A DNA stretch of 64,000 nt from assembly GCA_964016885.1 (NCBI GenBank), contig OZ024745.1, positions 66,278,001-66,342,000 on the forward strand, read 5' to 3'. Origin of the DNA: Eledone cirrhosa (lineage: Eukaryota). Shown in pieces: positions 2,935-52,531 of this stretch; the stretch's first letter is position 1; the number at the start of each line of letters is the position of its first letter. The position numbers were made by a program, and so were the translations under genes. A model generated the notes under the pieces. That model was not told where the DNA came from. It made no database searches and saw only the letters and a list, made by a program, of their open reading frames with translations.

Positions 2935-3489
2935 AAGACTTGTCCAACTGTTAATCAATACTTTTCTACAATATGTTTGGTCTCTACCTTTCAATTTCTT
3001 AGATGTTACGCTTATGAGAGGAAATGAAAAAAAAAACATTTCCCATAATTTCTGATCTGTTTCTTCTTGGGGTTGCAAGACCAAGTGAAAACATGCGAAA
3101 TTGAGCTGGCCTGTGAGCCCCTCCGAGGCCATATCGCACTGGATGGCATCCCATATGCTCTGGGGGGATTTGACATCTACAGGGGGAAGAGGAGGACTGA
3201 TGTCTACTGGGTGGAGCCTGGGCCGGTTCCAAGTCTCACAGGTGACTTCATGTTCCTCAACCACAGTGGGTTCCATTGTGTTGTGGATAACCCTGTTGAT
3301 GAGGACACGCCAAGAGGTTACTGATGAAAGAAATGCTAGCAAAGCGAGTGAGACCGGACACCAAAACCATCATCTCTAACAGCTAAGGTGACCAAGGCAA
3401 CCTCTCGACAGCAGCTTTTATCAAGACCAACATTTCATCTGTTTGGCAAGTGCCCATCCCAAATGTGCCCAAGGATGCTACACCCTCTG

Positions 3490-23771: not shown

Positions 23772-24486
23772 GGTCACCAATTTTAGGAGGCTGCGTTGTT
23801 TTACGATTTAGACGGGAGTTCGTTTCCCTAGCTTGGCTGCTAGGACATCTCTTCTATTTGTTATTAGGTGTAGGTAAACAATTAAGCAAAAAGAACATAC
23901 CTCGAGATTATATGTACATGAGCATTTTAATCAGAGCATTAAACAAAACAGGTTATCATATCAGTTGCTCCTTGATTGGTAATTCGTAATTATCATTTCG
24001 TGGCGGTGTTCAAATATCCCGTGACCGCATGGTGTGACATCGCTGTTTCGCCACAGTGAAATGCTTTTGCTCCCATCAACACACAAAGTTGAAAAAGAGT
24101 GTATTCAGCTACTGATGTCAGAACGTGACGTCAGAACTAAGGTCAGTTAATCGACTGCCTCCAAAGTCAAAGCTAGGTGGCGTGATCTTCTACATAACCT
24201 CCCACGAGATTTTTAGAAAAGGAAATAAAAATCGGTTCATCGGACCATGTATGTAGAAAAACGATGAGCAACCAGCAAAAACCCCAAACCAAGGAGCAAT
24301 CAGCCCAATCAAGCACGAAGGGCACAACAAATTTCAAAAGAACATATGAAATAAGCATGCAAGAACCAGAAAGAAAAAAAATTATAATAAAATATAAATA
24401 CAATTTTTAAAAGTTCAAATAGTTCAAATAGGAAATACTGGATTAAACCGCCGCACAATTGGAGCTTACAAATATACAATGCTACA
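23772..24486 (-). mobile_element. Probable Gypsy LTR (~23782-24486) followed by a primer-binding site TGGTGACC (23772-23779)
   Basis: Starts TGTAG right after pol and a purine run; ends CTAAA (near-inverted CTACA) 2 nt before TGGTGACC. Confidence 0.55.
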
Positions 24487-26318
24487 CAGTTTTTTTGGCC
24501 AATATATCCTCCGACCGAATGGGTCGTAGTCTTATATCTTGGTGATGGGGGGGGGGGGGAACAGGTGTGTGTGCGAAAGAAAAAGACGGGGGCATTTGTG
24601 GCTCAGGTGTGGTAGCGTATGTGTCCAAATGTGCTCGGTTGAGTCGATCAATAGAAACCGTCTCAATGGGACCCTTAATTTCTACAGCGAAATGTTTCTC
24701 GGAACGAGCTAATACACGGTAGGGTCCAGAGTACGGTTGTGTGAGAGGTGGTCTCACAGCATCGTTTCTCACGAACACATGAGTCCACGAGGCAATATCC
24801 CTCGGGACTGAAGATTTTACAGTTTGCTTCCTCGTATCCATCGGCAGCGGGTCCTGAAAATAGGAACGCAGACGGGATACGTAGGAAAGCGGATCTTGTT
24901 CAGCAAGATCGACAGGGGCAAGCATTTGCCCAGGTAACGCTAGAGGAGCACCATATAATAATTCGGCCGAGGAGAACCCAAGGTCCTCCTATATTGTTGA
25001 CCGAATCCCCAACAACACAATAGGGAGGTATACGCTCCAACGCGTAGAGTCAGGAGAAGTCGGTAGAGCGGCTTTCAGTTGTCGGTGAAGCGCTCTACCA
25101 TTCCATTAGAGGCAGGATGATATGCAGTAATTCAGATGCGTTTAGCGCCGATGATCTTCGTCAGTTCATGGAAGAGGTTCGATTCAAACTGCTTTCCAGG
25201 GTCCGTGGTAATTGACATTGGTACTCCATATCGAGCGATCTATCCAGGCACAAGGGCACGCACTGTCGTATCAGCAGTGATATCTTTCAAGGGGATGGCT
25301 TCGGACCATCGCGAAAAACGATCGATAACAGTCAATATGTAATTATGACCACCGCTGATTGGCCAAGGTCCCACGATGTCAACATGAATGTGGCGAAACC
25401 GAGCGTCCGGGTTACTAAAAGTACCTAGAGGAGTCTTAACATGCCTGTGAACTTTTGATTTCTGGCAAGCAACACAGAAACGGCACCAGACAGTAATTTC
25501 ACGTCTCATATTTGGCCAGAAGAATCTAGCCGTTATGATTTTACTGTGGCAGAAGATCCTGGATGTGAAATGCCGTGTAAAACAAGAAACACAGTTCGAC
25601 GATGGTTCAACGGACAAAAGGCCGTGGCACATCCAAAGAGACGTCGCAAAGGATCCGTCCGTCTGCGGTCGATAATGGTAGGTATTTGATCCTGCAATTC
25701 ACAAATTCAGACGATGTAACATCCAACGATTTGAGGGTAGGCTGATCGGCTGCCAAGCGATTCAAATCTATGTCATCGGACGACGAGATCGAAGCAATCA
25801 GTAAACGAGACAGGGCGTCGGCCGCTGTATTCATAGAACTTGGAATATGTTGAATATCATTAGTAAATTTAGAAATGAGATCGAGATGTCTAGTTTCTCT
25901 GGGTCAGTATTTGTCAGCTTTTGCTTGCAAGGCGAATGTCAATGGCTTGTGGTCCGTGAAGATGGTGAAGATGGTCCGTGAAGATGTGCGAAAAATGCTT
26001 CACCGATAAGTATATAGCTAACAACTCCCGTCCAAAGGTGCTGTAGCGGGTTTCGGCAGGTTTAAGCTACCACGAGAAAAATTACAACGGTTGCTGTTGA
26101 TCATTCCTACTTTGTTGCAAATCTGCGCCCACGGCAGTATCCGACGCATCAAACAAAACGAAAGCTTAGCATTGGACACTGGGTGAGCCAGCATAGATGC
26201 ATTGGCTAAAGCAATTTTCGCATTCTCAAAATCCTCGAGCTGAGTTTCATTCAAAGAAGTGTCTTTATATTTCTTTCGGCAATTTTTCAAAATGTCCGTC
26301 AAAGTTAAGAGTAGCTTA

Positions 26319-26320: not shown

Positions 26321-28494
<2,174 letters not shown>

Positions 28495-28650
28495 ATTCTG
28501 GACTAAAATTAGTCCAGAATTAGCCGTCGAAACGGCTTGAGCTCAGCTGTCGGGGTCTTACTGGTTCCTATTACCCACTCTACTACATCAAGTATTGAGT
28601 ACTTTGGTGCGTTATGGTCCACCTGGTTCCTTACCACATTTCCTTCGTTA
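28495..28650 (+). mobile_element. Short PLE-type 3' end, 5'-truncated inside a hammerhead
   Basis: Hairpin attctggactaa-aa-ttagtccagaat, then GAAA (28529-32), stem III cggc-ttgagctca-gctg and GTC triplet; CTGANGA absent; TA on both sides. Confidence 0.5.
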
Positions 28651-30287
<1,637 letters not shown>

Positions 30288-30535
30288 TTTATTAAAATAA
30301 CAGATTAAAGTTTAAGCAAAGAATCGCTGCTTTCACCCTTAACAGGATCTTCTGAAACTAACAAAGTCAATCTGTAAACGCAGAACTGGATATTTCAAAA
30401 AACGTTGCAACCGGAGGAAGACAGGAAGACGATACTTTGGTTCGTGGAAACGTTCGCTTGCAAAGAACGGAAAAAAACGAATAATACGTCATTAATAGGA
30501 GCCGTGAAAACAACTACGCGCTAAGACAGAACCAC
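30288..30535 (-). mobile_element. 248-bp copy of the 3' terminus of the Hydra-like PLE at 33831-36965
   Basis: Matches 33831-34078 with one substitution seen by eye; carries the hammerhead copy at 30300-30375. Confidence 0.9.
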
Positions 30536-30552
30536 TTCTACTCAGTTTTGAT

Positions 30553-31920
30553 GTGGTAAGCCTTTACACCAACATTACACATGATTTAGGAATAAAGGCG
30601 GTTAAATACTGGGTGGAAAAACATAGAGAAGTGATTCCCATTAGATTCACAGCGCCATTTATATTAGACGCAGTTAAACTTATTCTGGAAAACAACACTT
30701 TCTTCTTCAATGGAAAGAATTACATCCAAATTAGAGGCACAGCGATGGGAACGAAGTTTGCTCCCGTTTACGCGAACTCTGTAATGGGATACTTAGAACA
30801 ACAACTCTACCAAGAAATAGAGGAAAAATATAGTACTGACTTTAGAAAGTACATTGAAAAATCTTGGAAGAGATACCTTGACGACTGTTTCATCATCTGG
30901 ACAGAATCTCTAGATACTCTGGATGAGTTCAATATCCTCCTGAATAACCTACACCCATCTCTCCAATTCACAAAAGAGATGAGTAGGACCAAATTACCAT
31001 TCCTAGATATAATGATAATCAAAAACGACACCACCATTACCACGGATATATATTATAAACACACAGACACCCATCAATATCTGAATTTTAAGTCGTGCCA
31101 TCCACCTCATACAAAACGCAACATCCCATACTGCCTAGCCAGAAGAATTTGTACCATTGTAGAAGATACGAATACCAGGTACAAACGCCTAACAGAACTA
31201 AGAGAATTTTTGCTCAAACAAAAATACCCATCTCTACTTATAGAAAATGGCATACAGCGGGCTATAAAAATACCTATACAACAACTTAGAACAACCCAAA
31301 GAAGAAGAAACCAAGAACTGGTCATACCATTTATAATGACACACAACCCATGTCACCAGAATATCTTCAACACTGCCAAAGCAAACCTACCGATCATTGC
31401 TCAAAGTAATGAATTAAAAGGCTTAATCACAGATCGATCTTTGACTCTTAGTAAAAGACAGCCAAAAAATTTGAAGCAATTGCTAACAAAAGCAAAGTTT
31501 GACCTTAACAACAAAGACCAATCATTCACTGTATCTAAATGCAATGATAATCGATGCGGCACATGTCAATCCATACACGCCGGTCAATATATGAAAACAA
31601 AAACTGGAAAAATATTCACAAATGCAAATATGAACTGCAAAAGCAGAAATCTAATTTACTGCATTAAATGCCCGAATTGTGAAGAACTATATGTCGGTCA
31701 AACTGGAAATGCACTATCGGAACGTGCACGGGTACACCGTCAACAAATCAGAGACCCACATGTCCGTCAGATACCCCTAAGCGGCCACCTGGCAACATGT
31801 GGTCAGGGAATATTTATAATATTCCCATTCTACAAATTACACAGCCCAAATGAAATCAAGAGAAAAATCAAAGAAAAGAATTTTATTGATAAATTCAAAC
31901 CCAAGCTAAATGAACAATAA
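30553..31920 (+). CDS. Neptune-like PLE, 5'-truncated: RT core plus GIY-YIG endonuclease
   Basis: SFDVVSLYTNI, GTAMGT, WKRYLDDCF, LPFLD, YYKHTD, SCHP..KRNIPY, C..RC.TC linker, NLIY..C..C..YVGQTG. Element spans ~30536-32452. Confidence 0.93.
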   Translation: MVSLYTNITHDLGIKAVKYWVEKHREVIPIRFTAPFILDAVKLILENNTFFFNGKNYIQIRGTAMGTKFAPVYANSVMGYLEQQLYQEIEEKYSTDFRKYIEKSWKRYLDDCFIIWTESLDTLDEFNILLNNLHPSLQFTKEMSRTKLPFLDIMIIKNDTTITTDIYYKHTDTHQYLNFKSCHPPHTKRNIPYCLARRICTIVEDTNTRYKRLTELREFLLKQKYPSLLIENGIQRAIKIPIQQLRTTQRRRNQELVIPFIMTHNPCHQNIFNTAKANLPIIAQSNELKGLITDRSLTLSKRQPKNLKQLLTKAKFDLNNKDQSFTVSKCNDNRCGTCQSIHAGQYMKTKTGKIFTNANMNCKSRNLIYCIKCPNCEELYVGQTGNALSERARVHRQQIRDPHVRQIPLSGHLATCGQGIFIIFPFYKLHSPNEIKRKIKEKNFIDKFKPKLNEQ

Positions 31921-32119
31921 TAACGCCTAGGGGTATTACTTCTACTACCACTATGACCATGACCACTAACAACAACAACAACAACAATAATAATAATAAT
32001 AAAAGTGATGTTGATGGTGATGATTAATAGAAAATGCTATTTTCATCATTTCAAAAAAGCAAAACAATTGATACGTTGGATATGACTATTGGTCGTTAGC
32101 ATGCTCAACCAGCCGTGAC

Positions 32120-32235
32120 GCTTAAACCAATCAGCTGTAGTAATTCAGTGAAACTACACACTGATTGGTCGAAATACAGTTTACAGGGCTTTGTATTCTG
32201 GAGCCACTTTTCTCTGTATAAAATGTATAAAAGGT
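32120..32235 (+). promoter_or_regulatory. Putative Pol II promoter in the pseudo-LTR (two CCAAT boxes, TATA-like)
   Basis: ccaatcag near 32127, ctgattgg at 32161, two tataaaa at ~32217-32232, about 70 bp upstream of the hammerhead. Confidence 0.45.
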
Positions 32236-32295
32236 AGGAAATTTACCCATCTCATTACAGTTGAAAATTGCAAACTCGACTGTCACCACATATCA

Positions 32296-32334
32296 TGAAC
32301 CTGAAGATTGCGAAAGCATGAAAGTACTTGTTCA
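32296..32334 (+). ncRNA. Minimal type-I hammerhead ribozyme
   Basis: tgaac / CTGAAGA / t-tgc-gaaa-gca-t / GAAA / gtac palindrome / TT / gttca. Confidence 0.75.
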
Positions 32335-32452
32335 ATTAACACTTAGAATTTAATATTCTATCATACTATTTCATTATAATACCATTATATATATTTTAAA
32401 GGATTGTAAATAAAACGAGTAAATCAGACAAAGTTGGAATTCCTCTTATTAA

Positions 32453-33830
<1,378 letters not shown>

Positions 33831-33842
33831 TTTATTAAAATA

Positions 33843-33918
33843 ACAGATTAAAGTTTAAGCAAAGAATCGCTGCTTTCACCCTTAACAGGATCTTCTGAAA
33901 CTAACAAAGTCAATCTGT
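33843..33918 (-). ncRNA. Type-I hammerhead-like motif with variant core CAGAAGA
   Basis: Minus strand: acagattga..agttt / CAGAAGA / tcctgttaagggt / GAAA / gcag-cgattct-ttgc / TT / aaact.ttaatctgt. Confidence 0.65.
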
Positions 33919-34828
33919 AAACGCAGAACTGGATATTTCAAAAAACGTTGCAACCGGAGGAAGACAGGAAGACGATACTTTGGTTCGTGGAAACGTTCGC
34001 TGGCAAAGAACGGAAAAAAACGAATAATACGTCATTAATAGGAGCCGTGAAAACAACTACGCGCTAAGACAGAACCACGTTCATGGTGTAAAAGTGGTCG
34101 TAGACTAATGTTCTCATAGGTAGTGCATAGAGACGTTCTCTGGCAATGAACGAAAAAACGAAGATAATAAGTCATATGTGGAGCGTGGAGAACAATAGCA
34201 CGCAAAGACAAAACCATGTAAATGGTATAACAGAAGTCGTAGACTAAAATTCTAACTAGGAGACCAAATGAATATCCTCTACAGAGTTAAGAACAAAGTA
34301 AATGAATACAATACACAAGTAATAGAAACAAATAAATACATACACGCAAACAGATACGTACATACACAAGGATACGCAAAACCTTACCATAGGTATACAA
34401 AACCACGCACATATAAATATGTGTGTGTGTGTATGCTTGTGTAAAAATAAATAAATAATTATATAAACGTATATAAGTAAATAAATACGTATATAACAAG
34501 CGCACAGACATACCTACAAATAAATACACGAATGTTCGGAGACGTAAGTCAACTAAAACAAGAAATACACATATACACACACCCACCATACGTACGAACC
34601 TGCATACTCACGCGGACGCAAAACTCCCATATACACATAGCCAAACCCTAAATACCAAATATGTAAAAAATATACGCCGTAACAGTCAAATATATGTACT
34701 AGAAGGTATACATACCTTCACAAAACATACGGGTAATATATACTTACCTCTGCAAATAAGTAAAGGAATAAACAAAACATATACTTAGTTCCCGCATCAA
34801 GACGTAAAATATCCACGTATAGATCGTG

Positions 34829-36958
34829 CTATCCGTTAGGGTATATCGTGGGGCTGTAATACAGGAAAGTTTTGTGCAATTTATGTTTACAAGCCGAAAT
34901 TGCCTCAAATTTTTTGTTTAAGATGTGGTCTGTGGCGTAGAGTATTTCCAGGGCCTCAGCGGCGCAGAGGTCACATGGTCTTTTATTTCCGTAATACGAT
35001 CTAGCCCTAGCTAGGATCTCCCATTGTAACTTATATTGGGTGTGGTTGTCTTTTAGACTCCAGATATAAGCTGAAAGTGACGTCATATTCCTTCTTAGAG
35101 GGTAACGAAAAGAATGGGTATGCATGTAAAGACGCTGCTTGAAACTATTGGTGGTTAACCCTATGTAGGCCCTACGGGACGTGGGTGTTACAACCTTACA
35201 TTTGTAGACAATGTTACTAGAGAGGCATTTCCCGGATAGGGGGCAATCAGCCTGATTCCTACAATTACAGTTAGTACTAACTACAGGGTTGCACGTGTTC
35301 CTACGGCTAGGTAGTTTAGCTAAATTTGAAGCTGTGATGTTATGTACAAGGTTAGGAGTCGTAGAGTAAGACATTTTAATAGTATTTCTATTAAAAATTT
35401 TACTATATTTATGTGTAGGGGGAAAATGCTTCGTAATAAGAGAAAGAAAGATCTTAGCTATTGGTGTGGCCACCTCCATATTATATGGTGGGTTAAACCA
35501 ACAAATGCGACGGGATCTATTTCTTCTAGGTCTATTTTCGTACTCTGTATAAGCTACCTTATCGACAAATCCACTTCGAGCAAGAGCTTCATTGTAATAA
35601 GTGGAATGGTCGTTGAAAATGCGCTCGTTGGTGGAAAGACGGGAAATCCTCAACGAAACGTTTTTTACCAGGTTCTTGGTTATGCTGGCAGGATGATTGG
35701 AATGCTTACTTATGTAATTAAGCGTATCATTCGGCTTTCTATACGGGTAATACAACCCATTCAGTAAATTGAGGGTAACGTCGAGGTAATTATCGACCGA
35801 GAGATTGGCCTCAACCTGTATAGAGAGGTTGAAGCCTTTAAAGAAGGCAGTTAGTTCTTTTCTGAACCTGTCGCAAGCACGAGGTCCGCACTTAGTCATG
35901 GTCAAAAGACCATCGTCACGGTACAAACCACCGCCCGCGTTGGGGAATTCGTCCTTGATAGAGAAAAGAAGGAAAAGGCCAATAAGATCAGTAACCTCCG
36001 CAGAGTCACTGGCGCCCATACTCACGTCGAATGGGGTACTATTGGATTTTTTTATCCAAATAGAGTCGTCGAAATTAATCACCGACTTTCGGGCATTAAG
36101 GATGACATCAACTTCGAAATCCTTAACCAGTGTGAGTGTTTTAGCGAAATTGATAGCTCTAAGGAGAAGTGGTAAAGTGATGGAGGAGTAGTAATTGTTG
36201 ATGTCGAATTGGATAAAACGGCAATGTTCCTTGTTACATATGCCGTTGAACCAATCAATCACCGCGAAGGAATTGTTCCACAGTGCGAGAGGGGCCAAAC
36301 TTCTAATTTCAGGTATAATTCTATCAAGAATCGTTTTACTAAGTCTACCTAAATCGGACTTCGTAGGGTTAATAATCCGAATAGAGGGGTTGTTCAGAAA
36401 ATTGGATTTGTGATCCTTCAGGGTAAAGTGGGGAGAGATACGGTCCAGAGGTTCGGTCCGGTCCAGGATGTTGAGATCAGATGTGATTTTAAACCCAGCA
36501 TCGTTGATTTCATTGATGACACACCGATTAGTTTTACGGTAATCCTTAGTTACGGCATTATGTAGTAGTTGATGGTAAGTACTGCGCTCCACTTGATATA
36601 AGTTGCCAGTTTTGTCGGAATGGACGTGCACGGCGTTAGAATCCTTAATAGAACGAATTCTATTCTTCAGGTCTTGCTGGAAGGAATTGCTCCTATTCCG
36701 AAATTTGATACTCCGAATGAGTTCCAAGACATCATTTTCGAAGGGTAGCAAAGCTGGGTTCCACGGAGGGTTATTATAGGTTTTAAATACAAATTTATCC
36801 TGTTTGTTGTCTGCTTTTCGCGGATTAACGATATAAAAGGCACGCCAACGCAACCTTTTAATGAACGCGTCTGTTTTCTGTATCAGGAGTTTTAGGTATG
36901 TTTTCCTGCTTGGTACGGGTATGTTCTTTGTAGAAATATTCAGATGTTGTTTCTGCAT
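34829..36958 (-). CDS. Hydra-clade-like PLE, uninterrupted 709-aa RT plus GIY-YIG ORF
   Basis: KNIP..IKRLRWRA, QFDINNYYSSI, MGASDSAEV, LYRDDGL, NYLDV, SNHP, WFNPPY, CNCR...CPL..KC, NIVY..YIG, C-terminal CDLC..E. Element spans ~33831-36965. Confidence 0.9.
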   Translation of the reverse strand: MQKQHLNISTKNIPVPSRKTYLKLLIQKTDAFIKRLRWRAFYIVNPRKADNKQDKFVFKTYNNPPWNPALLPFENDVLELIRSIKFRNRSNSFQQDLKNRIRSIKDSNAVHVHSDKTGNLYQVERSTYHQLLHNAVTKDYRKTNRCVINEINDAGFKITSDLNILDRTEPLDRISPHFTLKDHKSNFLNNPSIRIINPTKSDLGRLSKTILDRIIPEIRSLAPLALWNNSFAVIDWFNGICNKEHCRFIQFDINNYYSSITLPLLLRAINFAKTLTLVKDFEVDVILNARKSVINFDDSIWIKKSNSTPFDVSMGASDSAEVTDLIGLFLLFSIKDEFPNAGGGLYRDDGLLTMTKCGPRACDRFRKELTAFFKGFNLSIQVEANLSVDNYLDVTLNLLNGLYYPYRKPNDTLNYISKHSNHPASITKNLVKNVSLRISRLSTNERIFNDHSTYYNEALARSGFVDKVAYTEYENRPRRNRSRRICWFNPPYNMEVATPIAKIFLSLITKHFPPTHKYSKIFNRNTIKMSYSTTPNLVHNITASNLAKLPSRRNTCNPVVSTNCNCRNQADCPLSGKCLSSNIVYKCKVVTPTSRRAYIGLTTNSFKQRLYMHTHSFRYPLRRNMTSLSAYIWSLKDNHTQYKLQWEILARARSYYGNKRPCDLCAAEALEILYATDHILNKKFEAISACKHKLHKTFLYYSPTIYPNG

Positions 36959-37460
36959 GATGAATATAAGTCAGTAGAGTGCTCAATCGGTGTGTCATCA
37001 ATGAAATCAACGATGCTGGGTTTAAAATCATATCTGATCTCAACATCCTGGACCGGACCGAACCTCTGGACCCTATCTCTTGGGAACATAATCTACATTT
37101 ATTTCTACTATTTTGATAAGGGGTGGCCCTTTTGAGCACACTCCAGGTCAGGTTATATTCTATATTCCTCTTTCTATAATTATTAATTATTTCAGCTAGA
37201 GATGTTGTATTAGCTAGTGCGGCATTTTTAAAACTATGTTTGTGGGTATTAAATCTTACCTTAAAATTGTTAGAGGTAGCTCCTATATATGAATAAATAG
37301 AGTCCTGGAGTGTGCTCAAAAGGGCCACCCCTTATCAAAATAGTAGAAATGAATGTAGATTATGTTCTCAAGAACTTTTCGAAATAATAAAATCTAAGGA
37401 TATCCTATTAAATAAGCGACAGGAATTAATAATATCGTGTAATCATAAACTGAGAAAAAC

Positions 37461-41199: not shown

Positions 41200-44100
41200 T
41201 CAGGATTTGGGCACCATGGCCCATTCGAGAAGAGAATTACTGTTTGCGGAGACATATCCGGGTGTGGGTGGTTTGTCCGGGATTACTTGGAGGAATTTGT
41301 CCAAAGACTTCTTGAATTTTGTGTGGTCAGTTTCTGTTTTGACGTGTCCTGGTGTGATGTTGAAGAGAGCAGGGCCGATTGAGGTGAAATAATTGTGCCG
41401 TATTGTTGTTATGAGTTGCGATTTAGATTTGTGAATGGGACGGATAGCACGGGGCCCAAGCCTTGGGTGTATCTTGAAGGCGATGCCAACATCATTTGGG
41501 CAGTGATGATGGAACATTTTCCACATCATGCAGATAATATAACGCTCACGGCGACGTTGGAGTGAGTAAAGTTTCAGGTTTTCTAATCGACCCCAGTAGT
41601 CAAGGTCTGACATGCCATCTATCTTTTTCGTGATTGCCCTTTGAGGAGCTTCAAGTTTCATGATACTTTGTTTCGTGTGGGGAGACCACAGTGGACAACA
41701 GTATTCAAGGTGTGGTCGGGCAAAAGTAGAGAAGAGAAGGATAATGGTGCGGGAATCTCTCGACTGGAAGGTTCTGAGGATCCAGGAACACATTCTGCGG
41801 GCCATATCAACTTTGCTGCTTATATGCGTGGTCCAGCTTATGTTGCTGTCCACGGTTACTCCCAAGTCTCTGATGTTGTTAGATGCCACGTGAGTTTCCC
41901 CGGAGGGAAGGGAGTACGGGAGTTTCAGAGCATCCTCTTTTCCAAAGTGGATCAGTTCGAATTTGTCTTCGTTCAGTAACATGTTGTTCTTTTCTGCCCA
42001 TTGGGTAACAGCCAGTAGGTCTGACTGAAGGCTTATCCGGTCATCCACGCCATTGATGACCTTTTGGAGCTTGGAATCATCAGCGAAAATTTTAATGTTG
42101 CTGTGTTTGATGATGTCAGTGATGTCATTAATATAGATGATGAAGAGAAGTGGGCCCAACACAGTGCCTTGTGGGACCCCACTACTGACTTTGGCTGGGC
42201 TTGATTTGACTCCCTCAACTACAACATGTTGGGTTCTGTTTGACAGGAAGCTCTTGATCCACTGCAGCAGCCTTCCAGTGACACCAATATTGGACAGCTT
42301 TCTCAGTAGAATGTTATGATCAACCCTGTCAAAGGCCTTGCTGAAATCAAGGTAGATAACATCAGTGTTGGAACCCTCTCCCAAGGCTCTCAAAATGTCA
42401 TCAAAGTGATGCAGTAGCTGCGTCAGGCAATCCCTTCCATTACGGAATCCATGCTGGTTGGAGTTCAGCATATTGTTACTCTCAAGGAAGTGGGTCATTC
42501 GCGATCTCACCACTCTCTCAAATACCTTAATGATATGAGAGGTGAGTGAGATTGGACGGTAATTCACGGCAAGGGATTTGTTTCCCTTTTTGAAAACTGG
42601 GACAACAGACTGGGATAGAAGGTTTTCTGGCACATATCCAGCATCCAGTGAGTTCCGCCACATATTGGCAAGAGGAGATGCAAGTTGGTGTTGACACGCC
42701 TTCAAGACACAAGCAGGGAACCTATCGGGACCTACTGCTGAATTATGCTTGATTTCCTTTATTGCCGCCAAGACATCAGGGGCGCCAAACGTTATGTCCG
42801 ATAAGGTGTAATGGGGAGTAACATCGCCGATACAGCCCAGATCGGCCATATCAGGATTGCTGAAAACAGAGCAGTATTGTTTCTGCAGTATCTCACCCAT
42901 GGTTTTAGCATTGTCTTGAAGAGTGCCATTTTCATCAATTAGAGGGCCAACAGTAGAGCCAGTGATTTTGTGTTTTTTTGCAAATGAAAAGAACACTTTG
43001 GGATTGAGTTTGATCTTCTCAATGGCCCAGGCCTCTTCAGCTCTTCTCTGATTGTTGATGAGGGACATTATGTTGTTTTGGAGGTTATGTTTTTTAATCT
43101 CTAGTGATGAAATGGCAGTCAAGTTGATGTGTTGCTGCTGACAGTATTTCAGCTTGTTGATTTTTTTGTTCGTTCTCTTAATTTTTCTGATGAGCGTTTT
43201 TCTATTTCTAGGGATTCTGCTCTTAGATTTGTTTATAGTTCTTAATGGGGTGTGTTTAGCACATATGTTTGTAACAGTGTCCACAAATGTCTGCCAGGAC
43301 TTTTTGATGTTAGTGGGTGTATGAGTGTGCGTGAAGGACCAGTCGACATGTGCAAGATCATGACTGATCGCTTCCCAGTTTGCATTGTGGAAATCCATAG
43401 CGTCAAACGGATGGATAGGAGAGATGACATTGGGTTTGTATATTGGACGGTGGAATCTCAGATCACAGAGAACCATGTCATGATCAGAGAGTAGAGTTTT
43501 CTCCACTGCAATATTGTGGATATTGTCAGTGTGATTGCTGAAAATTAAGTCTAGGACGTTTTTGTGGCACCTCGTTGGTTCGAGCACCAGTTGGGATAGG
43601 AAGAAATCATCCATGAAGTCAAGAAGCGATTCCACAGCTTCCCTGTCAGAGGTTGAGGCAGAAGAACCTGGTGGCAGGCTGTTTGTGGACCAGTCAACTC
43701 CGGGGAGGTTGAAGTCCCCCATCATTAAGATGTTGTCAGGGTGACACTCTTGGATGAAACACTTTATGCTGTTGAGGCATTCCTTGAAGCATGGTACAGG
43801 CGTTTGGGGTGGCCTATAGAGCCCAACTACTAATAGGTTGTTGGTTTGACTGAATACAGTGACTGCTTCACAGTATCCATTAGTGAATATGTTCATAGCC
43901 TCTGTTGAGAAAGAATTATGGACATAAATGGCAGTTCCGCCCTTTCTTCTGCCAGCGCGATCAGCACGGATGGCTTTGAAATTTTTCACTTTCACCTCGG
44001 CTTCCAAGTGGAGGTTACTGAGATGGGTTTCAGTGAGGACGAAGAAAGGGATGTGGTTTGGATGGACATCAATCCAGTCCTCCAGGAATTTGATCTTCCA

Positions 44101-44319
44101 TTTTTGAGTATTGGTGGAAGGGCTGATGCCTTGGGCGTTAAGCAAAAATGTAGAGGCGAGAGTGGATGGTTTTAATTGTTTTGGTGTATTGTTAATTTGT
44201 TTGTTTGTTAATGGCAGCAATGGGAGTTTGTGCAGTGGGGTGATAGTGGAGGGTGGTGCTGGGTGATAGCTCGAATGTTTTTTTCCAGTTCTTTTGCCAG
44301 ATTCATTATGGCTAAAAAA
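41200..44319 (-). CDS. CR1/L2-group LINE ORF2 (APE endonuclease plus RT), uninterrupted, no AUG start
   Basis: LLNAQG, LTETHL, YRPP, GDFNLP, LDLIF, SDH; [38 protein letters not shown]. Element spans ~41113-44985 with (ttcaaagtta)2 tail. Confidence 0.95.
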
Positions 44320-44972
44320 GAGGAAGAAGTTTCCTGTTTAGAAGACTGTTGGTGACTGTGGTAGTGGTTATTTTTATGTAGGTTATGGTTTTTGTTTTTG
44401 CTTTTATTTTTAATTTTATTTTCATTTGTCCGACGGGTCCCCGGGAGATGGGTAAAGGGACAATCCCGGTCTAAACACAATCTGTCTCGCAGGGAAAAGC
44501 GGCAGATTTGTGGATTCCTTGTTTGAGTTATTGGTGGTTGTGTTGGTGTTAAATTAGAGTATGTATTATGGTGGTGGCTGTTTGTGGGGATAGATCGTTT
44601 TGTCCTAGGTAAATGGGTGAATTTGCAGCCACTATCCGTACATATTCTATAGCGTAGAGAGTAGCGGCAAATGATGGGGTTTCGAGTGGGTGGGTATGTG
44701 GGTGTGTGTGTTGTGAGAGGTGTAGATGATGGTTTGGGTAGGATTTGACGACCTTTGTGGACTGTGCGAGGGAGAGTTCTTGTTCTGGTATTAGAAGGTA
44801 AATTCCTTGACATAGCAGTAGACAAAAATGTTGTAGTAGTAGTAGTAGTAGTAGGCAGAGATGTTGGCAGTGGTGATGATTGGACTGCTGGGCCAGAGAA
44901 AGGATGTGGCGTTTCATGCTGTGAGACAGAGGCTACTGGGGGGTCAATAGTTTCATTTAGTAGATCGGCCAT
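44208..44972 (-). CDS. LINE ORF1 (~254 aa) with two CCCH zinc fingers
   Basis: ATG at 44972 (MADLL); [19 protein letters not shown] and [19 protein letters not shown]; overlaps ORF2. Confidence 0.8.
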
Positions 44973-46560: not shown

Positions 46561-48180
46561 TTAGCTGTATACTTTGTGAAAAGTCTTATGGAATTTATGC
46601 AAGCAGATAGAAAACAAATCTGTACGTCTATTTATTATAGAATCTAGATTAGAGATAATGGTAAATTTTTCATTTAGGCAGAGATTACAGATTTTAGATA
46701 GAGAGCTGTTCAAGTATGAAGACGCAGAAGAAACCTTCTTCCAAAAGATGGTATATTTAATGTTTTTGTGTTTCAAGGACCATATGAGTTCTGAGAGAGC
46801 CGTGTTGGTTCTTTTAAGTTTGTATTTAAAAGATGAATGATGATCATAGAGACGAGCTTTAAAAGAGGTGGAAGTGGAGCCAAAATAGGTGAAGGAATTG
46901 GTGCTAGTTATAACTTTACATTCATAAATTAAGTTTTTATCAAGACAATGGTTGTTGAGAGGACATTTATTTTTAATGCGGCAGTTGCAATTAGAGAGAT
47001 TATTAATGAGTGACCTAGTGTTATCTATAGAAGGAATTGAATTGGAGAAGTTGTTTGCGATAGGAATAATAGTTTCTTGATTTAGAGTTGGATTATGAAC
47101 ATTTAGCGAAGTTGTGTTTGACGTTGTATTTGGGTTTACAGAAATTAGCCTAGGGTTTACAATGACGTCGGGAGTACTATTTCTGTTATTATGAAATTCA
47201 GTGTTGGAAGGAAGAGATTTAGTATTTAGTATTTTATTGTTGTGTTTAGAGATAATGTTGGAAATATTGGAGGATGTAGAATAAGAAAATTTTATGGTGT
47301 GTTTGTTAAATATTTTACTATAGATATGTGAGGGAGGGAAGCATTTATTTAAGGCACTAAAGAATAATTTATGAATATTGTTATTAATAGAGATGGAGAA
47401 AGGAGCATTATACCAGATTATGTTTTTGTATCTAGGTCTTTTATTAAAGTTATTGGAATGATCATGATTAATTATTCTACTGTAAGTTTTTCTAGAATTT
47501 GTTTCTTTACTATATTTGATTTTATCAGGATAGCCGGCTTTAGAAAGAGCGTTATTATAGTAATTGGCGTTAGCATCAAAGATGTTTTTATTAGAAGATA
47601 TGTTAGATATTCTTTTTCCAATATTACTAACTATAGCATTCTTGATATTGGTAGGATGGTTAGATTTAAAGTTAACATAATTTAGGTTCTCATTGTTTTT
47701 ATGGTAAGGGTAATATAGGCCAGTGTCAAGATTAAGAGATACATCCAAGAAATTAGCTAGTTTGATACTGTTATCAAATTCAATTTTTAGGTTATGTTGG
47801 TTAAAGAGATTACGTATATTGTTCTTAATAATATTAAGGTTAACTATATTGCAATTTAAGATAGTAAAGAGTCCATCGTCACGATAAATTCCTCCGCGAA
47901 GTTGAGGAATTTTCCGACTCAAAGAGTTCAAAATAAAGATACCAATTAAATCAGTCAATTGGGATGAATCGGATGCTCCCATTGTGATGTCGAAGTTGTT
48001 AGAGGTATCGGCTCTGGTCCAATATTCGTTGTTGAACTCTAGGATGGTTTTACGTGCGGTGAGGATGATGTGAAGTTCATCTGTGGTGATGTCAGAATAT
48101 TTAAGTGCGAAAGATAGAGCATTATTGAGAAGTGAAGGCGAAATGGAGGAATAGTAGCTGGCAATATCAAATTGAATAAA
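46561..48180 (-). CDS. Hydra-like PLE RT plus GIY-YIG (truncated)
   Basis: IQFDIASYYSSI, MGASDSSQL, IYRDDGL, NFLDV, CNCR...CPL...C, NLIY..YFG, CNLCLNE. The first ~50 aa of the called ORF come from the inverted pLTR. Confidence 0.9.
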   Translation of the reverse strand, partial: FIQFDIASYYSSISPSLLNNALSFALKYSDITTDELHIILTARKTILEFNNEYWTRADTSNNFDITMGASDSSQLTDLIGIFILNSLSRKIPQLRGGIYRDDGLFTILNCNIVNLNIIKNNIRNLFNQHNLKIEFDNSIKLANFLDVSLNLDTGLYYPYHKNNENLNYVNFKSNHPTNIKNAIVSNIGKRISNISSNKNIFDANANYYNNALSKAGYPDKIKYSKETNSRKTYSRIINHDHSNNFNKRPRYKNIIWYNAPFSISINNNIHKLFFSALNKCFPPSHIYSKIFNKHTIKFSYSTSSNISNIISKHNNKILNTKSLPSNTEFHNNRNSTPDVIVNPRLISVNPNTTSNTTSLNVHNPTLNQETIIPIANNFSNSIPSIDNTRSLINNLSNCNCRIKNKCPLNNHCLDKNLIYECKVITSTNSFTYFGSTSTSFKARLYDHHSSFKYKLKRTNTALSELIWSLKHKNIKYTIFWKKVSSASSYLNSSLSKICNLCLNEKFTIISNLDSIINRRTDLFSICLHKFHKTFHKVYS

Positions 48181-48459
48181 TTCTTTTAATTTATACATTA
48201 TCTTCCAACGGTTTTCAACCTCTCTATGTAAAGCAATATATCTTTTCTCAGTTATAAAAACTATCTCTTTCTCTCTATCACCCATCTCTCCCTCTCCACC
48301 TTCACTCTCATCTCCTCCCCTTTTTTTCATCCTTTCAACCCCCCCTCTCTAAACAAAATATTTTCCCAATATCACACATCAATCTAAAATTACTTTTCAT
48401 ATGTTGATTTAAAACTGCTCTATCCACAAGTGTTTTTTAGCCTTCATATCATGTCCTCC

Positions 48460-49089: not shown

Positions 49090-51419
49090 TCATTTTTTCG
49101 TGTTCAGTAGTGGTTTAAATTTTTCAATGAAGAATTCTTCTTTATATCTGCGGAAATGTTCGTTATCCGACCATATCTTGAAGAAAGGGAAGATTGTGAA
49201 TTTTCCCTTCCCGCATGATGCAAAGTGTGCGCTACATGTGGTATTTCTGACTGTGGGGTCTTTAATTTGTTGTTTATGTACCCGGACTCTATCATGTAAT
49301 CCCGTTCCGGTTTCCCCAATGTAATACTCTTTACACTGTGGACATGTTGCGCAATATATTAGGTTTTTCGTTTTGCAGTTCATGTTAGCATTGACCTTGA
49401 AATTATCATGGTTTTTGAAGGACAACTGTTTGCCCTCTTCGATGAGTTCACAGGTTCCACGTCTAGGGTCCCGCATTTCGTCACTTGCATTGATTCCATG
49501 TTGGTCGTAAATTTTGCCTTGGTAATTAGTTTTTTAAGGTTGGGTGCTTGGCGTCTGCTATAAATTATCTGTGTGTTTTTTAAGAGTGCATTCATTTTGG
49601 TAGATTGCTGTAGAATCGGGAGATACTGCTTAGCAGTTTTCACAATGTTGATGTTCCCTGGGTTGTGAGTGATGACAAAAGAGATAGCAGGGTTTTCTTT
49701 TTTATGTTGTGGGTTTGGTTTTCTCAGTGTTGTTATTGGGATGTTCTTAGTCTTGGAGATGGCTGCGTTGATGAGTTTCATCGGGTATTCTTGTTTTTTA
49801 AGGAATTTTTTCAGGTCACATAATCTTTTTTCTTGTAGTACGGGGTGTGTTGCTATAGTGCAGATGCGCCTTGCCATGTTGAAGGGAATGTTCCTTTTCG
49901 TATGTGAGGGGTGTGCTGACCGGAAATTTAAGTATTGGTGTGTGTCAGTGGGTTTGCAAAATAGGTCCGTTATGATATTTTCCCCTTCTTTGATGATGAG
50001 GATATCTAGAAAGGGCAGTTCCTTTTCGTTACATTCCATAGTGAATTGTATAGCTTCATGAAGCCTGTTTAGGATCGAATAAAATTTTTGTAGGTCTGTT
50101 TGGCTTCTGTTCCAGAAGATGAAGCAGTCATCTAGGTAACGTTTCCAGTTTTTATTAATGTAGAAGGCGAAGTCGTGACTGAATGTTATCTGTAGTTGGG
50201 AATATAATTTTGCCTCTAAGTGACCCATAACGAGCGTTGCATATGTAGGGGCCACTTTGGTACCCATGGCTGTTCCTTTTATTTGTAGATAAAGTTCGTT
50301 GTCCAAGAGGAAGTGGTTGTTTTCCAATACTAATTTAAGTCCTTCCAAGATGAATTCTTTGGGGAATCTTTCTGAAATGTGACTTGAGTGTTTTGTAATC
50401 CAGAAGTCCACAGCTTCAATCCCTAGGTCGTGTGGGATGTTAGTGTACAGGCTTATTACATCAAAACTGACTAGGGTTGTATCCTGGTGTACTTTTTGGG
50501 GGATATAGTTAAGGAATTCCATATCATCTCTGATGTAGCTTGGAACTTTTTTACATAGGGGTTTGAGTATGATGTCTAATAGGTTGCTTAGACGTTGTGT
50601 GCTTGAGGCTGGGCCAGCAATAATGGGGCGTAATTTTAAGTCTGTCGGTTTTGGTGCTTCGATGTATGATGTATTTTTCCCTTTTATGTTGTTTTGGATT
50701 TCTATGGATTTGTGAATTTTTGGTAATCCATAGAAATTGCTGGTTTTCATTTCGAAGTTGGTTAGGTAATCTACTTCTTTTGGTGTTAGGTTGTTTTGGT
50801 ACTTTGTTGTTAGTTTGCATATTTGGTTTCTCGATTTCTTTTCTTCGTTTTTAGTGATTTTCCTGTAGAAGTTTTCGTCATTCAAGTGTGCTAGGACCAT
50901 ATCTTTGTAGTGGTTTGTGTCCATGATGACGATTGCTCCACCTTTGTCCGCTTCTTTTATTATTATTGAGGAATCTCTTTGTAGCTTGTTCAATGCTAGT
51001 AGTTGGTCTGTAGGGATGTTGCATTTGTGTCTCGTCTCGGCCGTATTTGTACGTGCTGATCGGCGAAGGCAGGTTATGTATTCCTCCAGGTATTTATCTC
51101 TATTTAGCGGGGGTGTGAAGTTCTTTTTGTTTTTCACCAGTGATTCTTCCTCGTATTGTACACCCTGGAAGAATTCTCCTAAGCGTAATTTTCGACAGTA
51201 TTCTTCTGTGTCTTTTATAACATCGGCTGTATCTGCTTTCGGAGTGGGAGTGAACTTCAGTCCATTTTCTAACAGTTGTATTTCTGGTTGTGTTAATTTC
51301 TTGGCTGATATATTGATTATTTTTGGTTCGATTGGTTCTTTCTCGTCAGGTGCCACTTGAAAGGTGGTGCTTTTTTCTTTTTTTCTTTCATTTGGTGCGA
51401 GGACCCTAGTCCTAAAAAA
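49090..51419 (-). pseudogene. Neptune-like PLE ORF2 (RT plus GIY-YIG), one frameshift near 49470
   Basis: GLKFTP, KEADKGG, FYGLPKIHK, RPII, SFDVISLYTNI, GTAMGT, RYLDD; NCKTKNLIY..C..C..YIGETG in the next frame (49090-49476). Confidence 0.93.
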
Positions 51420-52531
51420 TGGGTGCCATTTGGGATAGGGGTGTTTCTGTTGTGGTGAAACCTTTGGCCCGCCGGAACTTCATGTCGGTAACTGGTTGGG
51501 CGATAGACTCTTGCGTGGCCGTTGCTGTATGGGGGTCTGGTTCTTCTGTTGATTCGTTCAGTATTCATGTGTCTTTGATTTTGTCTCCGGTGATTGTTCT
51601 TGGTGTTATGGCAGTGGTTGTATCTGGTTCTGGTGTTGAGTATTGGGGCTGTATGTAGTTGTGTGTTTGGGGTTACCCAATATCTGGTTGTTGTTGGTTT
51701 ATTGTGTGTGGGTGCTTCATTTCTTGTGTTGTTGTATTTTCCTGAGTTCTGGGGTTTCCTATGGGTTTGTTTTCTGGGTTTTATTTGGTCTTTCCCATAG
51801 TTATCTTCATATTCTTGAAGCCATTGAGTTCTTGACTCCAAGATTTTCTTTGATTTTAACTCCTCTCTAGTTGTATCTGTCTGCCATAGGTTAAGGAGTT
51901 TTTCACGTACATTGCCGCTGCTTCTTTTGTTTATTTCCTCTTGGATGGTGGTGTCGCATTTTTCAAATTTCTCTTTGAATTTTGGCACTCTTAGGCGGAG
52001 TAGGGTGATTTCGGTCTCAAGTGTTTGGAGTGCTAGATTTAGTCTTGTTGCAGTTTCTTCCTTTGATTCCGATGGTATTTCTTTAATTCGGAATTTTCTC
52101 GGGAGGATAACTGGTTCCTTGCTACGCCATATTTCGTATGTGTCTGCTAGGTTTTCACTCCTCAAGGCTTTCCAGTATGCCTGTTTCCTTTGATTTAATA
52201 ATGGGTTCCAAATGTTTTTCATTTGGTTTCTTTTTCTGTAGGCTTCTTTTTCTAGGTTCAGTTCATTCCATTCTTTGAATGCATTATTGGTGATGGAGTT
52301 CTGTTCATGTGTAGCTATTTAAGGAGAAGAGGTTTGTTCTTGTTTTTGCCGGTCTGTAATTAGTGAATCAAGTTTTTCCCTATAGCTGCGTGTTTGTTGT
52401 TCCATTTCTAGTACGGCATTCGTAAGGGAATCATATTTATCTATTATTATGGTGAGTTTTTCTGATATTTCCTGTAGTAGTGTATCCGATTTGAGGGATT
52501 CAGTAGAGGATTTTGAACGTGTGTTAGCCAT
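51317..52531 (-). pseudogene. Upstream ORF1 of the Neptune-like PLE (~404 codons, helical/coiled-coil-like then basic), one in-frame TAA at 52319-21
   Basis: MANTRSKS... reads in frame through the single stop into ORF 51317-52222. Confidence 0.7.

Follow-up and report, generated by a model that had tools for sequence, protein, structure and literature searches.

The 64,000-bp stretch of the Eledone cirrhosa genome analyzed here (assembly GCA_964016885.1, contig OZ024745.1, positions 66,278,001 to 66,342,000 of the forward strand), referred to as the window, contains at positions 30288-32452 a composite insert formed by a Hydra-like and a Neptune-like Penelope-like element (PLE) joined head-to-head. 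The insert is embedded between TA/TACA microsatellite arrays, and the outer ends of both arms abut the arrays. It is an uncommon variant of a PLE head-to-head layout that is already known and is very common in the E. cirrhosa genome. The features of the region are listed below in window coordinates, and genome searches refer to the 3.0-Gb assembly.

29594-30041, no strand: TA/TACA array to the left of the composite insert, from reading of the sequence; the spacing of its C interruptions is unlike that of the array to the left of 33572.
30042-30287, no strand: copy of the neighbor's TA flank (= 33572-33830), from shared C-to-C intervals and alignment.
30288-30535, minus strand: 3' arm of a Hydra-clade PLE, 248 bp, short form without the 88-nt tail of the family, from BLASTN.
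30533-30535, no strand: junction microhomology CAC, 3 bp, present in both parents.
30536-32452, plus strand: Neptune-like PLE, 1,917 bp, 5'-truncated inside the reverse transcriptase (RT) domain, with a short-form 3' end, from Pfam and alignment.
32453-33571, no strand: TA array separating the insert from the duplicated flank, with no collinear homologue in the window.
33572-33830, no strand: source copy of the duplicated TA flank, from spacing and alignment.
33831-36989, minus strand: full-length Hydra-clade PLE (the neighbor), 3,159 bp, with a short-form 3' end and an open frame of 713 amino acids (aa) at 34829-36970.

The two arms adjoin with zero TA between them, and their 3' ends are directed outward, each into a TA array. 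The Hydra-like arm at 30288-30535 (minus) matches 33831-34078 over 248 bp with 1 mismatch (99.6% identity, E 5.6e-126) when the insert is aligned to the window by BLASTN. A minus-strand element has its left end at 33831, so that the 248 bp represent the 3' end of this element, also in minus orientation, and the PLE at 33831-36989 is the likely source of the arm. Base 3159 of this neighbor (window position 36989) is a recurrent 5' limit in other copies. The array at 29594-30041 is likely the original target array.

The sequences meeting at the join, with a slash marking the breakpoint, are ...CAGAACCAC/GTTCATGG in the neighbor, ending in GAACCAC before the breakpoint, and ...ACGAATTCAC/TTCTACTCAG (over a shorter stretch, ...CGAATTCAC/TTCTACTCAG) in the other Neptune-like copies (29 of 29 fetched), with the window reading ...CAGAACCAC/TTCTACTCAG. 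The CAC at 30533-30535 occurs in the neighbor and in all 29 of these other copies, forming a 3-bp microhomology, and as it is common to both parents the breakpoint may be placed anywhere from 30532/30533 to 30535/30536. A 300-bp query spanning the join, for which 40 of 2,283 genome candidates were scored, gave a two-sided match to the window only, and the remaining 39 scored matches begin at query base 146 and are 100% identical. None of the public-run contigs (X16, X17, X18, X1 and X15) over 30250-30850 and 30490-30580 spans 30535/30536, and loose contig ends at 30533 continue as the normal upstream sequence of other Neptune-like copies.

The traits of the Hydra clade are a C-terminal GIY-YIG endonuclease (EN), DKT in place of DKG, an RWK motif, insertion into (TA)n and a canonical hammerhead ribozyme, together with a CxCx5C linker instead of CX2-5CxxC, loss of the EN CCHH motif, and CxxC and CxH motifs flanking the conserved E and N (PMC8557442). 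The 713-aa frame of the neighbor (34829-36970, minus) is open, and its motifs, read by eye without alignment to reference Hydra families, include DKT as SDKTGN, RWR at the place where the Hydra clade has RWK, the CxCx5C linker as CNCRNQADC, a single Cys between IVY and YIG, and CDLC (CxxC) followed by CKH (CxH) near the C terminus. The GIY-YIG endonuclease at the C terminus is visible as IVY...YIG, with residues 582-636 aligning to the Neptune-like GIY-YIG; a Pfam search of the frame gave no match. Insertion into (TA)n is apparent at 3,250 genome places where the short-form end abuts TA with at most 2 mismatches, the reversed control giving 0. Rfam at the gathering score gave no match across the whole window, and a looser search confined to 33831-34830 and 31900-32452 gave no hammerhead at E up to 10. 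Judged by these motifs, the neighboring element and the 248-bp arm belong to the Hydra clade.

The Neptune-like frame at 30508-31920 contains a partial RVT_1 domain (the C-terminal part of the RT), a Cx4CxxC linker and a GIY-YIG domain (Pfam, GIY-YIG E 1.5e-6), and is followed by a 3' untranslated region (UTR) of 532 bp at 31921-32452 that ends as TTATTAA/TA without the ~53-nt tail. Residue 11 of this frame aligns to residue 336 of a relative at 49380-51479 (minus), 52% identical, in which the RVT_1 match covers residues 282-474, showing that the Neptune-like copy is cut inside the RT just before FDVVSLYTNI. The linker reads CNDNRCGTC, and the EN has CIKC ... H ... H, read without alignment to the CCHH columns. 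A CX2-5CxxC linker is common to Neptune and Nematis as far as the account in PMC8557442 goes; "Neptune-like" is used here as a working label, assigned by motifs without a tree, and the element may belong to Nematis. The Hydra-like and Neptune-like proteins are 31% identical over 55 aa in the GIY-YIG core (E 2e-4), which together with the differing motifs indicates that two deeply different PLE lineages are joined.

An earlier note on this DNA had described a 248-bp Hydra-like terminus (minus) meeting a Neptune-like part at 30535/30536 without TA, a description with which BLASTN and reading of the sequence agree. Its further statements, that the Neptune-like part (plus) is cut in the RT and that both 3' ends are directed outward into TA, are matched by the alignment to the longer relative and by the array reading, and the assignment of the arms to two different clades is upheld by the low identity in the GIY-YIG core and the motif differences. 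The inspection for junction microhomology that it had proposed yielded the 3-bp CAC.

The sequence outside the Hydra-like arm places its origin close by. Counted outward from the element, the C-to-C intervals of the TA flank are 20, 41 (54 in the neighbor), 8, 14, 12, 16, 18, 12, 14, 26, 18, 12 and 14 in both window copies. Between 30042-30287 and 33572-33830, 13 consecutive intervals thus match, 12 of them exactly and one as 41 versus 54, and beyond the 13th interval the two flanks diverge abruptly (12, 6, 12... versus 32, 32, 16...). The alignment of the two flanks has 0 mismatches in 211 aligned bases and one 13-nt TA-run difference. In a control, five-interval runs from 30042-30287 recur within the 64 kb only at 33583-33679 (7 collinear runs), and the arrays 29594-30041 and 32453-33571 have no collinear interval partners in the window. 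A 62-nt pattern of the element end plus flank has 3,250 genome matches (at most 2 mismatches), and among the ten loci that were fetched, shared sequence continues in the two window copies alone. With the 248-bp arm as query, the two window copies stand apart and the others are at 96-98% (41 of 1,450 candidates scored). The 99.6% identity of the arms is by itself unexceptional, as unrelated loci reach 99.6-100% over 248 nt, and for this reason the local origin rests on the flank and on the standing apart of the two copies in the genome search. Within the window and among the ten loci fetched, the shared flank of ~246 bp is found only beside the neighbor; the arm was therefore templated by this copy, 3.3 kb away, as read-through RNA or as DNA. 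On this sequence evidence the Hydra-like arm is copied from the neighbor together with ~246 bp of its flank and not from a random RNA of the family.

The duplicated block comprises 494 bp and its source 507 bp. The left edge of the block lies inside a run of uninterrupted TA no longer than 12 nt. On the right the block extends exactly to the 5' end of the Neptune-like arm, and this ties the two together. Flank homology as far as 28745/32453, given by a first alignment, was rejected, with the interruption spacing ceasing to match at 30042/33572. Tandem duplication by unequal exchange was likewise rejected, with 32453-33571 having no collinear interval run in any window array and the positive control giving 7.

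The Neptune-like arm has 2-5 mismatches in 1,652 bp to many genome copies (99.7-99.9%), indicating that this family is very young. The 248-nt Hydra-like arms have a median pairwise identity of 97.2%, with some unrelated loci at the 99.6-100% given above. One substitution and the 13-nt TA-run change are the only differences between the duplicated block and its source, which makes the block recent and of an age compatible with Neptune-like activity.

Other local duplications are present in and near TA arrays. The stretch 28757-28830 matches 27256-27330, a TA-array block duplicated locally with its interruption pattern kept. Elsewhere in the genome, L081 has three 45-bp arms, L093/L094 have three 67-bp arms with the same cut, and L100/L101 and L064/L069 are also duplicated blocks; DNA-level duplication within or near TA arrays seems common. 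Beside the 5' end of the neighbor, 36985-37080 is a 96-nt inverted piece of the element body, 98% complementary to 36434-36529, and a further 83-nt inverted repeat at 37078-37373 encloses a GIY-YIG C-terminal fragment of another family.

Head-to-head pairs are the standard product of both families. In a first sample of 28 Hydra-like loci, two arms are head-to-head at at least 10; about half of the loci run 88 nt past TTTATT before TA (long form), and the rest, including both window copies, have TA directly at TTTATT (short form). A larger survey covered the first 60 listed short-form places with 5 kb each, classified by script and then curated by hand; among the 36 same-family pairs of the script, L117 was removed (a low-complexity match), and L115, L083, L132 and L140 were added. 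A same-family inverted partner, mostly terminating in the 88-nt tail, is present at 39 of the 60 short-form ends. The remaining ends run into TA or another microsatellite (14 of 60) or are tandem (L133) or unclear (L129), and other non-TA sequence adjoins five of the 60 arms (L085, L097, L110, and L100 and L101, which are duplicates of each other). The same-family junctions have ~0-8 bases of overlap or a few filler bases. Arm lengths are uncorrelated within a pair, as either arm can be the longer and the tailed arm is often cut inside its tail, a pattern more in line with separate priming of two strands than with a single fold-back. The pooled arm-to-arm identity within pairs is 98.0% (2,581 columns) compared with 96.3% for random other loci, a gap too small to serve as a test of one versus two source RNAs.

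The Neptune-like 3' end has 6,201 genome matches, and 100 listed ends include 19 neighbor pairs within 5 kb in the (-,+) arrangement and 0 in the (+,-) arrangement. Among 30 sampled ends, 24 carry the ~53-nt tail after TTATTAA and six are without it. All six tail-less ends lie inside same-family head-to-head complexes, and the eight lone arms are all tailed. Compared with a standard pair, the window insert has the two 5'-truncated arms, the outward 3' ends and the absence of a spacer, and differs in combining two families, in having both arms in the short form in place of one tailed arm, and in the flank that one arm brings from its source. The likeness to same-family pairs extends to the short microhomology. 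The tail-less boundary falls at a TA-like site in both families (AATAAA/TAT in the Hydra-like and TTATTAA/TATA in the Neptune-like element). Short-form Hydra-like arm lengths cluster at ~37-48 nt and 65-83 nt (L081-L140), and Neptune-like arms often stop 191-197 nt from the 3' end (1721-1727 of the 1,917-bp arm); the clustering suggests pause or cut sites.

At three of the 60 Hydra-like ends the partner is from another family, joined without a spacer and with its outer end in TA. At L085 a 128-bp Hydra-like arm meets a 5'-truncated repeat unit from a tandem family (period ~516 nt) that contains CTGATGA and terminates in TA. At L097 a 724-bp arm meets a fragment of a high-copy family that ends ~35 nt before the usual end and is followed by TA. 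L118 is a mosaic in which four filler bases separate Hydra-like arm 1-299 from a sense-oriented segment of its own family (510-321), after which come the C terminus of the EN and the 3' UTR of another Hydra-clade family, leading into TA. In these three loci and in the window the foreign 3' end is directed outward. Neptune-like matches also occur in L081 and L128, set apart from the sampled arm by TA. At L110:587-1300 a 252-bp Hydra-like arm adjoins coding-looking sequence with a P-loop-like GTGKT (by eye), which may be a candidate Helitron-type helicase.

The composite insert may have been made in one retrotransposition event using two templates, which is the preferred reading, put forward tentatively. 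Both strands of the TA array would be cut. At 32453 the 3'-OH of the bottom strand would prime on Neptune-like RNA at an internal TA-like site of that RNA, with 1,917 nt being copied. The top-strand 3'-OH at 30041 would anneal to the TA part of a putative read-through transcript of the neighbor, and synthesis from this point would proceed through ~246 nt of the neighbor's flank and then 248 nt of its 3' end. The two complementary DNA (cDNA) 3' ends would pair via CAC/GTG, and each would be completed on the other. The Hydra-like RNA would end in the TA of the flank since the source copy has no tail, and a read-through RNA would carry the flank along with the arm. Such an event would account for the geometry, microhomology and flank, and also for the right edge of the block falling at the Neptune-like 5' end. 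The difference in clade between the arms makes fold-back of a cDNA on itself impossible and argues for two separately primed templates. We infer that the template was RNA and not DNA and that both arms were made simultaneously. A more general form of this model, in which the second arm can be primed separately on any TA-bearing template at hand and the window records a Hydra-like read-through plus a Neptune-like RNA, is conceivable if doubtful.

The earlier note had proposed that RNAs of two clades were used in one event. The difference in clade and the layout, which is that of same-family pairs, stand, but the arm is not a generic copy of a family RNA. The involvement of two RNAs in one event is possible, but a DNA template explains the copy of the neighbor and its ~246-bp flank equally well. 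Heterologous outward ends, which it had suggested counting, were found in the samples as foreign partners (3 of 60) but not as Neptune-like partners.

Several observations weigh against the two-template event. It is a single case, the join is unique among the matches scored, and the assembly at the join is unverified by public contigs. Joins of Hydra-like to Neptune-like arms number 0 of 60 among the sampled Hydra-like ends and 0 of 30 among the Neptune-like ends, and the five non-TA junctions among the 60 place the background of unrelated junctions not below the rate of heterologous pairs. Normal pairs have one tailed arm, whereas neither window arm is tailed; for the model to hold, the Hydra-like RNA has to have ended in the flank TA. 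Loss of a Neptune-like partner is a fair alternative, as 6 of 6 short-form Neptune-like ends sit in same-family complexes. A DNA template would also give the same product, and read-through transcription of the neighbor is putative.

A DNA-templated repair route, which would make the Hydra-like arm a repair patch with no Hydra-like RNA involved, is considered somewhat unlikely. A Neptune-like insertion intermediate, or a broken palindromic Neptune-like pair, would leave a left TA 3' end that anneals out of register 1.1 kb to the right and copies 33572-34078 from the bottom DNA strand, and the copied strand would then dissociate and join the Neptune-like end through CAC. This agrees with 30042-30535 being a direct copy of 33572-34078, flank included, in the same orientation, and with block edges formed by the pure TA stretch (at most 12 nt) on the left and the 3-bp microhomology on the right. 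It would also account for the missing same-family tailed partner, which is present for all six sampled short-form Neptune-like ends, although no trace of a lost Neptune-like partner is present. Local DNA-level duplication inside TA arrays is common (L081, L093/L094, 28757-28830 = 27256-27330), but those duplicates have both edges in TA, unlike the window block, and the route needs an invasion 1.1 kb away followed by the synthesis of 507 nt, a long stretch for a patch of this kind. A series of unrelated events is an unlikely explanation, in which a separate Hydra-like arm or pair and a Neptune-like pair would lose their inner parts through a deletion at the CAC microhomology, the identity with the neighbor arising from local duplication, a 3'-transducing local copy or gene conversion. 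TA arrays hold many independent inserts at distances of a few tens to hundreds of bp (L128/L144, L159), 14 of the 60 short-form Hydra-like arms are alone, cuts near base 250 exist (L038 at 250, L110 at 252), and a deletion between two pairs would readily leave two outer short-form arms as observed. Three or four events would however be required, the block ends on its right just where the Neptune-like arm starts, and a simple tandem duplication by unequal exchange is unsupported, since no array to the right is collinear with 32453-33571. Random nesting also does not predict that the foreign partners are all outward, a weak argument with four cases only.

Two further explanations are much less probable. 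The join could be an artefact of the assembly, through a false connection between two repeats of high copy number or an error in assembling the TA region, and the thousands of copies in both families, the TA-array-rich surroundings and the lack of a public contig across the join are in keeping with this. Overlap-based assemblers, however, do not join on 3 bp, the flanking block differs slightly from its source (1 substitution and the 13-nt TA-run change), and real pairs elsewhere in the genome have the same layout, making an artefact very improbable. Hardly any credence is given to a single Neptune-like insertion with a ~500-bp target-site duplication (the flank plus Hydra-like bases 1-248), in which the 1.1 kb of TA would come from the source locus. 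Formally, the order block, Neptune-like arm, TA, block corresponds to an insert flanked by direct repeats, but the flank from 32453 matches no other Neptune-like copy beyond ~45 nt. A pattern of the Neptune-like end plus flank gave 12 genome matches, none of them collinear, and a second pattern from the 32453-33571 array gave 4 matches compared with 4 for the reversed control, with no Neptune-like end alongside.

In L1 twin priming both cut target strands prime, and one RNA gives two non-overlapping parts as inverted segments. The two-template event proposed here shares with it the two primer strands, the joining by microhomology and the inverted segments, and differs in that both arms start at a 3' end, so that two templates are needed, and these are different. 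In 3' transduction by read-through of a long interspersed element (LINE), the downstream flank is copied together with the 3' end of the element, as is the flank downstream of the source here; in the window the flank is a microsatellite, the landing site is 3.3 kb away in the same array and the RNA route is putative. Templated insertions and synthesis-dependent repair copy nearby DNA into a break that is closed through microhomology. The window likewise has a nearby stretch copied into a junction with microhomology closure, the difference being a patch of ~500 bp that ends at retroelement cDNA.

For EN-bearing PLEs, inverted and tandem insertions are outlined by Craig et al. (2021, PMC8557442), where their mechanism is treated as unresolved and the origin of these insertions, together with the extra tail at one end, is left as an open question. 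To the extent of that account, the arrangements in E. cirrhosa resemble those insertions in the 5'-truncated arms, the inverted 5'-truncated neighboring copy, the tail at one end and the (TA)n target. The window insert differs in having a partner from another clade, no tail at either end and an arm that carries the flank of its neighbor, and the tails in this genome are ~88 nt (Hydra-like) and ~53 nt (Neptune-like) compared with the 30-40 bp given there. A literature search of listings and abstracts found no paper on PLE pairs from different families. The flank on the Hydra-like arm means that a second template can be local. If the more general model of separate priming on any TA-bearing template is true, the window would provide direct natural evidence for two-primer, two-template integration in which the preference for the element's own RNA is strong but leaky. 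The single window case is insufficient alone to settle the integration mechanism. At least 3,250 Hydra-like short-form and 6,201 Neptune-like 3' ends, mostly young or well preserved, are available, and a census of pairs, tails and foreign partners in the E. cirrhosa genome could test integration models without biochemistry.

Further elements lie elsewhere in the window. Short non-TA inserts are located in TA arrays at 29377-29593 and 28497-28665, with relatives beside the PLE loci L039, L042, L044, L051 and L059, and ARAGORN gave no transfer RNA in 28400-29700. A second Hydra-clade family, with CxCx5C, CxxC and CxH motifs, is present at 46561-48348 (minus), and a long LINE-type frame of 1,045 aa at 41200-44337 (minus). 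Candidate integrase fragments of a long terminal repeat (LTR) retrotransposon, judged by eye, are found at 24482-25903 (minus).

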